Shown one piece after another: positions 12,216 through 51,050 of a DNA stretch of 64,000 nt; position 1 is the first letter of the stretch; each line of letters opens with the position of its first letter. The notes under the pieces were generated by a model. The model had not been told where the DNA came from, ran no database searches, and saw only the letters and a program-made list of their open reading frames with translations. Source of the stretch: Escherichia coli. Its GTDB lineage: Bacteria; Pseudomonadota; Gammaproteobacteria; Enterobacterales; Enterobacteriaceae. Position numbers and translations under genes: made by a program. The stretch is from NCBI RefSeq assembly GCF_048403405.1, contig NZ_CP183129.1; one strand, given 5' to 3'.

Positions 12216-12254
12216 GTGTTCTGTCCATCCTTCAGTAATCGTTATCTTTTAAAC

Positions 12255-12286
12255 CGTAGACCGACACCCTATCCACGTCGGTCTAC
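12255..12286 (-). other. 10-bp perfect inverted repeat (RNA stem-loop) in the sucB-sucC intergenic region
   Basis: GTAGACCGAC...GTCGGTCTAC with an 11-nt loop, between the sucB stop and the sucC start. Confidence 0.5.
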
Positions 12287-12308
12287 AGTGCAGGTGAAGC
12301 TTAAACTA

Positions 12309-13540: not shown

Positions 13541-16342
13541 TTATTCGACGTTCAGCGCGTCATTAACCAGATCTTGTTGCTGTTTCTGGTGAACGGACAT
13601 ATACCCTACCGCCGGAGAGGCGGAGGCCGGGCGGCCTGCATAACGCAGAGAAGCCCCAAACGGAATCACTTCACGGAAATGATGCTGGCTGCAGTACCAT
13701 GCGCCCTGGTTGAGCGGCTCTTCCTGGCACCAGACAAAATCCTTGACGTGAGCAAACTGCTGCAACACTTCCTGCATCGCTTTATGCGGGAACGGGTAGA
13801 GTTGCTCGATACGCACAATGGCGACATCGTGTTGATTGTTCTTACGGCGTTGTTCCAACAGGTCGTAATAAACCTTACCAGAACACATCACTACGCGCTT
13901 CACACCCTTCGGATCAAGCTCGTCGATTTCACCAATGGCAGGCAGGAAGGTGCCGTTCGCCAGTTCTTCGAGGCTGGAAACCGCCAGCGGATGACGCAGC
14001 AGGGATTTCGGCGACATCACGACCAGCGGACGACGCATCCCGCGCAGCGCCTGACGACGCAGCATGTGGTAAACCTGTGCCGGGGTAGACGGTACGCACA
14101 CCTGCATGTTTTGCTCAGCACAAAGTTGCAGATAACGTTCCAGACGCGCGGAGGAGTGCTCCGGCCCCTGCCCTTCGTAACCGTGCGGCAGCAACATCAC
14201 CAGACCACACATCCGGCCCCATTTCTGTTCGCCAGAGGAGATGAACTGGTCGATAACCACCTGAGCACCGTTAGCGAAGTCACCGAACTGTGCTTCCCAG
14301 ATAGTCAGAGTGCGTGGTTCTGCGGTGGCATAACCGTATTCAAACGCCAGCACGGCTTCTTCTGACAGTACGGAGTCCCAGACACGAAACGCGCCCTGAC
14401 CGTTATGGATGTGTTGCAGCGGCGTGTAAGTGGAACCGTTAGACTGGTTGTGGATCACCGCGTGGCGGTGGAAGAAGGTACCGCGACCGGAGTCTTCACC
14501 CGACAGGCGAACCGGAATGCCTTCGTCAACCAGCGTGGCGTAAGCGAGGTTTTCCGCGCCGCCCCAGTCGAACAGTTTCTCACCAGCTGCCATCGCCTGG
14601 CGATCGCCATAAATCTTGGCAACGCGAGACTGCATTTCAACTGCTTCCGGCACCGTGCTGATGCGTTTAGCCAGTTCCTGCAGGCGCTTCATCTCAACTT
14701 TGTTCGGGTACTCTTCGTCCCATTCGTGGTTGAGGTACGGCGACCAGGTGAAAGAGTGCATGTTCATCGGACGCCACTCTGCCACTACGCAATCGCCAGC
14801 ATCCAGCGCATCGCGGTACAGGTTAACCATCTCGGTGGCATCTTCGAGCGTCGCCACTTTTTCTTGCTCCAGCTTGTCAGCGTAGATTTTGCGCGGCGTC
14901 GGATGTTTTTTGATTTTCTGATACATCAGCGGCTGGGTTGCGCTCGGCTCGTCGGCTTCGTTGTGGCCATGACGGCGGTAGCACACCAGGTCGATGAAGA
15001 CATCACGTTTAAAGGTGTTACGGAAATCGAGCGCCAGACGGGTCACAAAGGCAACGGCTTCCGGATCATCCGCGTTAACGTGGAAAATCGGTGCCTGAAC
15101 CATCTTACCGATATCAGTACAGTACGGCGTCGAACGGGCATCCAGCGGGTTAGAGGTGGTGAAGCCAACCTGGTTGTTGATAACGATACGTACCGTACCG
15201 CCAACTTCATAGCCACGCGCTTTCGACATGTTCAGGGTTTCCTGAACCACGCCCTGCCCGGTCACTGCGGCGTCACCGTGGATGGTAATTGGCAGCACTT
15301 TGTTGCTGCTCGGCTCATCAAGTCTGTCCAGACGGGCACGAACAGAACCGATAACGACCGGGCTTACAATCTCAAGGTGAGACGGGTTAAACGCCAGCGC
15401 CAGGTGTACCAGGCCGCCATCGGTCTGGAAGTCAGACGAGAAGCCCATGTGGTATTTCACGTCACCCGTGCCGAGGTGTTCTTTATGTTTACCGGCAAAC
15501 TCGTCGAACAAGTCTTGCGGTTTTTTACCCAGCACGTTCACCAGCACGTTCAGACGACCACGGTGCGCCATCCCAAGAACCACTTCGCGGGTGCCGCTGT
15601 TGCCAGCGTGGCGGATCATCTCTTTAAGCATCGGGATTAACGCGTCACCGCCTTCCAGCGAGAAGCGTTTTGCACCAGGGAATTTTGCACCGAGGTAACG
15701 TTCAAGGCCTTCAGCGGCGGTCAGTTCGCTTAAGAAGCGTTTTTTCTCTTCGCTATTGAAAGTCGCGCGACCAGACTCGATACGCTGTTGGATCCAGCGT
15801 TTTTCTTCGGTGCTGGTAATATGCATATACTCGGCGCCAATCGGGCCGCAGTAGGTTTGCTTGAGTGCTTCCAGCAGTTCGCCGAGTTTCATGGTTTCTT
15901 TGCCGCTGGCAAATGAACCGACGTTGAAGGTCTCCTGGAAGTCTGCTTCGGTCAGATCGTGGAAAGACGGATCCAGATCGGCCACTTTATCTTGCTGCCA
16001 CAGTCCCAGCGGATCGAGATTCGCATGCTGGTGACCACGGAAGCGGTATGCGTTAATGAGCTGCAGGACTTTAACCTGCTTCACATTGGTGTCAGGGTCG
16101 GAGATCGTTGAAGAGTAACGTGAAGCGTCTTTCGCCAGGCGGCGGAAATATTCACGCGTTTGAGAGTGGAATTGATCCGGTTTGACTCCCGTACCAGGTA
16201 ACTGCTGGAACGTCGAACGCCAGTTAGCGTCAACCGAGTCAGGATCGGTTAAGAAGTCTTCATAGAGCTGTTCTATCCAGCTCTGGTTTGCGCCAGAGAG
16301 GTAAGAAGAGTCCAACCAGGCTTTCAAAGCGCTGTTCTGCAT
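13541..16342 (-). CDS. sucA: 2-oxoglutarate dehydrogenase E1 component
   Basis: 933 aa; [31 protein letters not shown]. Confidence 0.96.
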
Positions 16343-16506
16343 CGTGATCCCTTAAGCATCTTTTTTATGCTTACTTCGCCGTGGATACTACCACGCACAG
16401 TGATGTGCGTGCCGGGGTTCACTTGCGAGCTCTTGTCTACGTAGTGGCTCGCGAAGGAACCTTTAAAAACTGTCTTAGTGTCAGGGGCAGTTTTTAAAGA
16501 TTTCCT

Positions 16507-16691
16507 GCATTTCTTTTGTAGGCCGGATAAGGCATTCACGCCGCATCCGGCGCTGTTTGCCTGATGCGACGCTTGCGCGTCTTATCAGGCCTACGATTTC
16601 TGCATTTCTTTTGTAGGCCGGATAAGGCGTTCACGCCGCATCCGGCACTGGTTGCCTGATGCGACGCTTGTGCGTCTTATCAGGCCTGGGT
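16507..16691. repeat. two tandem REP/BIME-type palindromic units (about 95 bp each) between sucA and sdhB
   Basis: Near-identical direct copies beginning GCATTTCTTTTGTAGGCCGGATAAGGC...GCCTGATGCGACGCTTG.GCGTCTTATCAGGCCT at 16507 and 16602. Confidence 0.75.
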
Positions 16692-17408
16692 TTACGCATT
16701 ACGCTGCAACAACATCGACTTGATATGGCCGATGGCGCGCGTCGGGTTCAGCCCCTTCGGACATACACTGACGCAGTTCATGATGCTGTGACAGCGGAAT
16801 ACACTGAATGCATCGCTCAAACCGTCGAGGCGGCTGTCAGTCTCGGTATCACGGCTATCGATCAGGAAACGATATGCCGCTAACAAGCCTGCCGGGCCGA
16901 TAAACTTATCGGGATTCCACCAGAAAGACGGACAAGAGGTTGAACAACATGCGCAGAGAATACATTCATACAACCCGTCGAGTTTTTCGCGCTGCTCTGG
17001 CATCTGTAAATGCTCGCGAGCTGGCGGATTTTGTCCATTATTCAACAGGTAAGGCTTAATTTTCTCATATTGCGCATAGAATTGTCCCATGTCTACCACC
17101 AAATCGCGGATCACCGGTAAACCTGGCAGCGGGCGAATCACAATCTTCTTGCCTGGCTGGTTGAGTGCCGAAATCGGGGTAATACAGGCCAGACCATTCT
17201 TGCCGTTCATGTTCAGACCGTCGGAACCGCACACACCTTCACGGCAGGAGCGGCGGAACGACAGGCTGGGATCTTTCTCTTTCAGCTGGATAAGCGCATC
17301 CAGCAGCATCATGTCACGACCTTCTTCCGCTTCCAGGGTGTAATCCTGCATACGCGGAGCATCATCAACATCCGGGTTATAGCGATAAATTGAAAACTCG
17401 AGTCTCAT
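16692..17408 (-). CDS. sdhB: succinate dehydrogenase iron-sulfur subunit
   Basis: 238 aa; Cys clusters. Confidence 0.96.
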   Translation of the reverse strand: MRLEFSIYRYNPDVDDAPRMQDYTLEAEEGRDMMLLDALIQLKEKDPSLSFRRSCREGVCGSDGLNMNGKNGLACITPISALNQPGKKIVIRPLPGLPVIRDLVVDMGQFYAQYEKIKPYLLNNGQNPPAREHLQMPEQREKLDGLYECILCACCSTSCPSFWWNPDKFIGPAGLLAAYRFLIDSRDTETDSRLDGLSDAFSVFRCHSIMNCVSVCPKGLNPTRAIGHIKSMLLQRNA

Positions 17409-50899: not shown

Positions 50900-50990
50900 T
50901 GGATCCGGCATGAACGCCTTATCCGGCCTACAAAATAGCGCAAATTCAATATATTGCACCATCCTCGCAGGCCTGATAAGCGTAGCGCAT
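50900..50990. repeat. REP-type palindromic elements in the kdpE-pgm spacer
   Basis: GCCTTATCCGGCCTAC and AGGCCTGATAAGCGTAGCGCATCAGGC motifs. Confidence 0.6.
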
Positions 50991-51005
50991 CAGGCAGTCA
51001 TAAGT

Positions 51006-51036
51006 AAAAAAGGGCGATCTTCCGACCGCCCTTTTT
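51006..51036. terminator. bidirectional intrinsic terminator between kdpE and pgm
   Basis: AAAAAAGGGCG...CGCCCTTTTT. Confidence 0.65.
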
Positions 51037-51050
51037 CTTATTTAATGTGT

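Follow-up and report, generated by a model that had tools for sequence, protein, structure and literature searches.

The sdhB-sucA spacer of the operon sdhCDAB-sucABCD in the window (the whole 64,000-nt stretch of Escherichia coli DNA analyzed here) carries a BIME-2-type cluster of REPs made of two tandem Z2-Y units, and the number of units at this site differs among E. coli genomes. By analogy with other REP arrays, the cluster probably acts in the operon mRNA as a barrier to 3' exonucleases and as a partial attenuator of read-through, raising sdh relative to suc mRNA. REP/BIME elements, their copy-number variation, the operon polarity effect, and the processing and termination in the sdhB-sucA spacer are already known; the allele census presented here is a small new descriptive result.

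Anatomy and family of the array

The array occupies positions 16500-16689 within the 349-nt sdhB-sucA spacer (16343-16691), and both strands were examined over 16200-17100. The two flanking genes, both on the minus strand, were identified from the ORF list and from the RefSeq annotation on a record with 100% identical DNA, so the gene context given in the earlier note, an array between the sdhB stop and the sucA start on the operon mRNA, was right. Along the mRNA, the sdhB stop is followed by 6 nt, unit 1, unit 2, the 157-nt sucA leader, and the sucA start (Table 1), and the first paired stem base comes 6 unpaired nucleotides downstream of the sdhB UAA, as judged from the sequence and the fold. 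Like other REPs, the array is extragenic. Two mechanical ORFs of the window, 16324-16539(-) and 16659-16883(+), are probably of the spurious REP-crossing kind, and the "hypothetical protein" that some RefSeq records (H76, H83, H128) place within the sdhB-sucA or the adjacent spacer is probably likewise a spurious ORF over a REP.

Table 1. Features of the sdhB-sucA region in the window, listed in mRNA order
Feature	Position	Strand	Description and basis
sdhB coding sequence	16692-17408	-	238 aa; stop codon TAA at 16692-16694; ORF list and RefSeq annotation
Unit 1 Z2 REP	16654-16689	-	First hairpin on the mRNA; GTAG tail degenerate (CCAG); pattern, inverted repeat I8, fold, Rfam alignment
Unit 1 short spacer S	16647-16653	-	AACCAGT on the mRNA; shorter by 6 nt than the linker of the naRNA4 model
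Unit 1 Y REP	16613-16646	-	CTAC at the mRNA 3' end; inverted repeat I6, fold, pattern, Rfam alignment
Inter-unit linker, 18 nt	16595-16612	-	AAAAGAAATGCAGAAATC on the mRNA; sequence
Unit 2 Z2 REP	16559-16594	-	GTAG intact on the mRNA strand; inverted repeat I7, fold, pattern, Rfam alignment
Unit 2 short spacer	16552-16558	-	AAACAGC on the mRNA; diagnostic of the sucA-proximal unit
Unit 2 Y REP	16518-16551	-	Loop GAATGCC, diagnostic of the sucA-proximal unit; inverted repeat I9, fold, pattern, Rfam alignment
Second 18-nt linker copy	16500-16517	-	AAAAGAAATGCAGGAAAT; connects the array to the unique sucA leader
sucA leader	16343-16499	-	Outside the repeat; long AT-rich hairpin and two smaller hairpins
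sucA coding sequence	13541-16342	-	933 aa; ORF list and RefSeq annotation

By repeat search, we found two 91-nt copies (16502-16592 and 16597-16687) with 95% identity at a spacing of 95 nt, and TRF reported a tandem repeat at 16499-16687 (period 95, 2.0 copies, 94% matches, score 343). With the linker counted in, the duplicated block comprises 16500-16594 plus 16595-16689, that is, two head-to-tail 95-nt units of 94 to 95% identity, which verified the tandem duplication of about 95-bp units that had been read from the sequence. On the mRNA each unit runs from a Z2 REP through a 7-nt spacer and a Y REP into an 18-nt linker. The Z2 REP reads GTAG (CCAG in unit 1) followed by GCCTGATAAGACGC-N4-GCGTCGCATCAGGC, the Y REP reads GCCGGATGCGGCG-N5-GCCTTATCCGGC followed by CTAC, and the linker has the consensus AAAAGAAATGCAGrAAAT(C). 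The same 18-nt linker recurs in the three- and four-unit alleles and in E. albertii, and the CAGGAAATC portion of its second copy is common to the BIME-less allele.

Every unit contains two imperfect palindromes, the Y REP GCCGGATAAGGC..GCCGCATCCGGC and the Z2 REP GCCTGATGCGACGC..GCGTCTTATCAGGC (inverted repeats I6-I9). The earlier note had correctly recognized palindromes here but counted one per unit; the string it quoted covers both. REPs are imperfect palindromes of 30 to 40 nt that contain a conserved mismatch and carry GTAG/CTAC at their foot. The four palindromes here are 30 to 32 nt long plus tail, and GTAG/CTAC is intact in three of them, while the fourth has CCAG/CTGG. Chance cannot account for such a tandem REP pattern: shuffles give 0.00 expected occurrences of the 69-nt Z2-N7-Y pattern, which is present twice, and for the REP tail motif 0.38 are expected in the 64-kb window, which has 6. 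The degenerate tail belongs to the first Z2 REP, where positions 16686-16691 read ACCCAGGCC in the window; K-12 and the ST131-type alleles have ACCGTAGGCC. Binding of the REP-associated transposase requires GTAG. Since the motif is lost from the first Z2 REP, this transposase may have ceased to act on unit 1 in the window lineage.

BIME-2 elements consist of Z2 and Y units in inverse orientation, joined by a short linker and present in tandem copies whose number at a locus varies between strains (PMC3333891). REP typing of the array gave Z2, Y, Z2, Y in alternating orientation, an assignment that the alignment to the REP325-unit model bears out, with 7-nt spacers as the short S linker and two copies at a 95-nt period, which is the BIME-2 build and not that of a Z1 and a Y separated by a long L linker. 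A REP-bearing query matched at a median of at least 37 places per E. coli genome, a copy number as high as expected of this family. The two units also match Rfam RF02564 (naRNA4) on the plus strand with 86.8 and 79.6 bits (gathering score, 59.5), and they are the only Rfam matches at the gathering threshold in the whole window. On the transcribed (mRNA) strand the same model scored 53.7 and 46.7, under the gathering score. Because the scoring plus strand is antisense to the operon and the transcribed strand falls below threshold, the match identifies a DNA repeat family and not an sRNA gene. Alternating Y and Z2 types, the BIME-2 layout, and the naRNA4 match together confirm the earlier identification of a tandem REP/BIME unit.

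Besides the sdhB-sucA array, the only other REP pair in the window lies at about 50.9 kb. This pair (50900-50997) is unrelated to the array; it joins a Y-type and a Z1-like REP in inverse orientation through a 36-nt AT-rich linker and is BIME-1-like. Directly after it, at 51004-51040, stands an intrinsic-terminator-like hairpin with a T-run.

Alleles at the two spacers of the operon

In order to survey the site, 5,426 complete E. coli genomes were queried with the region itself, with the flanks only, and with a 4.85-kb sucC-to-sdhB query; allele counts come from two evenly spaced samples of 60 and 59 informative rows (about 119 genomes), and representative alleles were read. Spacers of 199 to 200 nt have no REP but a 34-nt segment of unrelated sequence that forms a small GC hairpin; no BIME was present at sdhB-sucA in 39 of the 119 sampled genomes (33%). 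The K-12 type, in which a Z2-Y pair is followed after 12 nt by one Z1 REP, accounted for 50/119 (42%); its spacer measures 300 nt, and a 311-nt spacer combines the K-12-type BIME with an alternative sucA leader. Two units were found in 22/119 (18%), either in the 349-nt spacer of the window allele, whose exact form was seen in 7/119 (6%), or in a spacer of 360 to 361 nt that carries the alternative leader. Three units (455 to 456 nt) and four units (550 nt) were rare, with 4/119 (about 3%) and 3/119 (about 3%), respectively, and in one genome (1/119) an IS1397 copy is inserted in the first Z2 REP. The suggestion that the copy number could differ between strains therefore held: E. coli alleles have 0, 1 (plus Z1), 2, 3, or 4 units, E. 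albertii has 4, and the organization is not identical across genomes.

All multi-unit alleles that we read contain one sucA-proximal unit with the AAACAGC spacer and the GAATGCC loop; all further units belong to the type found next to sdhB. Copy-number change probably proceeds via unequal recombination or slippage between units, or via the REP-associated tyrosine transposase. A scan of genome contigs with a degenerate sdhB C-terminus pattern returned 7 loci, of which only E. albertii was informative; the scan gave no E. coli, Shigella, Salmonella, or E. fergusonii although the pattern matches K-12 exactly, and absence from it is uninformative for these taxa. In the E. albertii type strain, this site holds four units, partly decayed and joined by the same linkers, so the array either is older than the diversification of E. 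coli or was exchanged between the species.

In the BIME-less alleles (L005, L011), the first 45 nt past the sdhB stop contain the unrelated 34-nt segment TTAAATGTTGATGCCGGGGAAATCCCCCGGCTATT, which forms a 7-bp GC hairpin and lacks a U-run. Given this segment, the BIME-less allele did not arise by clean excision, and the two states are alternative cassettes. The disrupted allele belongs to strain SK0832 (NZ_AP046542.1, L010 3072-4420), where the IS3-family element IS1397 lies in the first Z2 REP of a two-unit array and places sdhB and sucA about 1.8 kb apart. IS1397 is known to target REP/BIME sequences.

The operon has a second polymorphic spacer, between sucB and sucC. In the window (12216-12308, genes on the minus strand) it is 93 nt long, without REP, and contains a hairpin GTAGACCGAC-N11-GTCGGTCTAC; in K-12 (L019 91-364) it is 274 nt long, with two Y-Z2 units inserted into the same hairpin. 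Across E. coli, we found sucB-sucC alleles of 93, 261, 274, and 365 nt, and in the joint sample they co-occur with the sdhB-sucA alleles in all combinations. Compensation between the BIMEs of the two spacers was considered and rejected, because all combinations occur, including none at both. A BIME is present at neither spacer in 13 of the 59 informative genomes (about 22%), which demonstrates that it is not required in the operon; being dispensable, it may have an effect that is small or incidental.

The sucA leader downstream of the array has structures of its own. Just downstream of the BIME, an AT-rich hairpin (16452-16507, inverted repeat I4; dG -19.9, z -4.8) has arms at 16458-16472 and 16488-16502, CTTTAAAAACTG-N16-CAGTTTTTAAAG, and extends to about 20 bp. 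It is kept in every E. coli allele read and in E. albertii, and could be either one of the reported RNase III sites or a palindrome bound by a protein. By comparing 16390-16453 with six other loci (L003, L004, L006, L008, L009, L012), we found two leader haplotypes with hairpins at the same positions and different sequences; the stems are GCGAGC..GCTCGC versus GCGGAC..GTCCGC, and the loop of the CACGCACAT stem is 8 nt longer in one haplotype. That different sequences form hairpins at the same positions suggests that the leader structure is conserved. Both haplotypes combine with different BIME alleles, which points to recombination or recurrent change.

The array in the operon transcript and competing explanations

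The RNA of the whole spacer is predicted to fold with -149 kcal/mol, versus -99.7 +/- 5.9 for shuffles (z = -8.4). Single units on the mRNA strand reach -43.5 and -46.0 kcal/mol (z of about -6.3), and the opposite strand is about equal. Overall z values range from -6.2 to -8.4, and 0 of 100 to 200 shuffles were as stable; the palindromic structure that the earlier note had expected on folding is evidently there. Two near-isoenergetic architectures are predicted, either four local hairpins or Z2:Y duplexes of about 30 bp, and the latter would be plausible RNase III substrates. As a check for a Rho-utilization signature, we looked at the C>G bias downstream of the array, which is weak (1.2 to 1.4), and a clear rut site was not seen there.

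Published data specific to the locus concern the K-12 allele (Z2-Y plus Z1), which differs from the two-unit allele of the window. Term-seq of MG1655 placed an RNA 3' end at 758531(+) (PMC7815308 supplement 1), and according to the flanking sequence printed in that supplement, it lies 5 nt past the last (Z1) REP stem. This is the position expected of an exonuclease-trimmed, hairpin-protected end, and for the K-12 allele it provides the transcript end at this site for which the earlier note had called. An RNase III-dependent coverage change was reported at 758515 under the label "P67/sucA" (PMC5371410), from which the K-12 sdhB-sucA cluster is probably "REP67"; the RefSeq annotation of NC_000913.3 does not list repeat features for this spacer. 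According to PMC9731577, which cites Cunningham and Guest 1998, RNase III cuts the sdhB-sucA spacer at three sites. Conway et al. described an internal terminator with partial read-through and a secondary promoter, which balance the coverage of sdhCDAB and sucABCD (PMC4161252).

Based on these data and on other REP arrays, a mechanism can be proposed. The array would be transcribed within the operon RNA, where four very stable hairpins or the long Z2:Y duplexes would form, and the folded array would block 3'-to-5' exonucleases. If the spacer were cut by RNase III or RNase E, or if transcription partly terminated downstream, the sdhCDAB message would keep a protected 3' end, while transcription or RNA continuity into sucABCD would be partly reduced. 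A weak internal suc promoter would top up the downstream genes, and the net result would be more sdh mRNA than suc mRNA. With more units, read-through would presumably be damped more strongly.

Work on REP325 argues in the same direction: this array makes the yjdM mRNA upstream of it more stable and, in part through Rho, attenuates transcription into yjdN; across the genome, tandem gene pairs separated by REPs show raised upstream/downstream expression ratios (bioRxiv 10.64898/2026.03.23.713779). Stem-loops, REPs included, also mark the exonuclease-trimmed 3' ends of Rho-terminated transcripts (Dar and Sorek; PMC6061677). The proposal of the earlier note that the pair may set the sdh:suc ratio is backed only indirectly, by the K-12 allele data and the REP325 analogy. 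On the other side, REP325 fragments of two and four hairpins showed no bicyclomycin sensitivity (bioRxiv 10.64898/2026.03.23.713779), which counts against a strong role here; a strong or selected role is also opposed by the dispensability of the array, by the missing U-run and clear rut signature, and by an orientation opposite to that of naRNA4.

Several rival explanations deserve weighing, and not all of them are mutually exclusive with an exonuclease barrier and attenuator. The array could be a neutral or selfish repeat, kept and resized by the REP-associated transposase and by recombination, with any effect on sdh and suc incidental and unselected. This seems a real possibility, although we tend to doubt it. 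It would account for the highly polymorphic presence and copy number, for the free combination with sucB-sucC alleles down to none at both spacers (the 13 of 59), for the unrelated small GC hairpin that takes the same place in the BIME-less allele, and for the IS1397 insertion in SK0832; strain-to-strain variation in copy number at a BIME-2 locus and in vitro recombination of BIMEs by TnpA-REP are on record (PMC3333891). It fits less well with the long persistence of the array, which follows from the same site and the same linkers in E. albertii, and with the K-12 RNA 3' end and RNase III processing that map to it. Besides, neutrality addresses selection and not mechanism, and is compatible with a real molecular effect. 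That the main role of the array lies at the DNA level is unlikely: here the array, with Y as the preferred unit, would be a strong, transcription-independent gyrase binding and cleavage site that relieves supercoiling in a long, highly transcribed 10-kb operon. According to the available text of PMC6379681, gyrase cleavage sites are over-represented in BIME-2, Y is cut more than Z2, and the K-12 sucB-sucC BIME-2 of the same operon is a named multi-site hotspot; the window strain has no BIME there and two units at sdhB-sucA. However, a compensation pattern is missing, many genomes have a BIME at neither spacer, and sdhB-sucA is not named as a hotspot in that available text.

With its first REP only 6 nt past the sdhB stop, the array might also stall ribosomes and cause mRNA cleavage, tmRNA rescue, and lower SdhB. 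This would be REP translational down-regulation as proposed by Liang, Rudd and Deutscher in 2015; as summarized in PMC12306157, it would operate when at most 15 nt separate REP and stop codon, and the 6 unpaired nucleotides after the UAA fall within that distance. We consider it quite unlikely, because lower SdhB would oppose the stabilizer effect and the production of SdhB has to match that of SdhA, SdhC, and SdhD. That the units are naRNA4-like genes for nucleoid-associated sRNAs, which would work with HU to condense the chromosome as originally proposed (PMC4550694), is highly improbable in spite of the RF02564 matches above the gathering score on the plus strand. That strand is antisense to the operon and had no promoter-like site nearby in our scan, the transcribed strand scores below the gathering score, and the Rfam model simply captures the BIME-2 repeat family; the nucleoid function itself is disputed, as no nucleoid compaction, ternary complex, or REP-REP contacts were found for naRNA4/REP325 (bioRxiv 10.64898/2026.03.23.713779). 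We rejected the sRNA gene for its wrong strand, its lack of a promoter, and this dispute. Equally hard to maintain is that the sdhCDAB transcript ends at the array by Rho-independent (intrinsic) termination, even though the hairpins are GC rich and Conway et al. spoke of an "internal terminator" in the operon (PMC4161252). An intrinsic terminator has a GC-rich hairpin directly followed by a U-run, and none of the four hairpins has one (the sequence past the last stem is ACAAAAGAAAUG); together with 0 terminator-like sites in the scan of 16000-17200, this led us to reject it. Cunningham and Guest in 1998 reportedly saw a 10-kb read-through transcript in rnc and rne mutants, which argues in the same direction.

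There is a small chance that both allelic series form a natural, heritable, promoter-independent dial for the stoichiometry of succinate dehydrogenase (SDH) versus 2-oxoglutarate dehydrogenase and succinyl-CoA synthetase. Were this true, lineages would have specific enzyme ratios with measurable consequences for TCA-cycle flux. One operon for three TCA-cycle enzymes carries BIME-2 alleles with anything from 0 to 4 units at sdhB-sucA, and its sucB-sucC spacer has a series of its own, independent of the first; these natural series make a test bed for the claim that REP arrays tune upstream/downstream ratios without any change of promoter or protein.

Comparison with known REP systems

At the same site, K-12 has a REP cluster that begins with the same Z2-Y pair and leads into the same leader. 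In K-12 one Z1 comes 12 nt after this pair (300-nt spacer), whereas the window has a second full Z2-Y (349 nt). As a family, BIME-2 in the classification of Gilson, Bachellier and Hofnung (PMC3333891) shares with the array the alternating Z2 and Y, the short within-pair spacer, the tandem pairs, the extragenic position at a gene 3' end, and the strain-variable copy number at a locus. The array departs from it in that its first Z2 unit has lost the GTAG tail in the window strain; an 18-nt linker is present where BIME-2 has a flanking or inter-unit motif of type s, l, or r.

REP325/naRNA4, a six-unit BIME-2 in the yjdM-yjdN operon of K-12, is the nearest relative in sequence and has Y and Z2 hairpins nearly identical to those of the window (86.8 and 79.6 bits) and also sits between two co-transcribed genes. 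In contrast, the window array counts 2 units instead of 6, with an internal spacer shorter by 6 nt. Relative to the naRNA4 model its transcription runs in the opposite orientation, and the operon around it serves central metabolism and has an internal promoter of its own. The REP stabilizers of malE-malF and hisJ-hisQ (Newbury et al. 1987; Khemici and Carpousis 2004, as cited in PMC6061677) belong to other loci and to REP types other than those of the sdhB-sucA array; like it, they are intercistronic REP hairpins, and according to that source, they protect the upstream mRNA from 3' exonucleases and lead to unequal expression within their operons.
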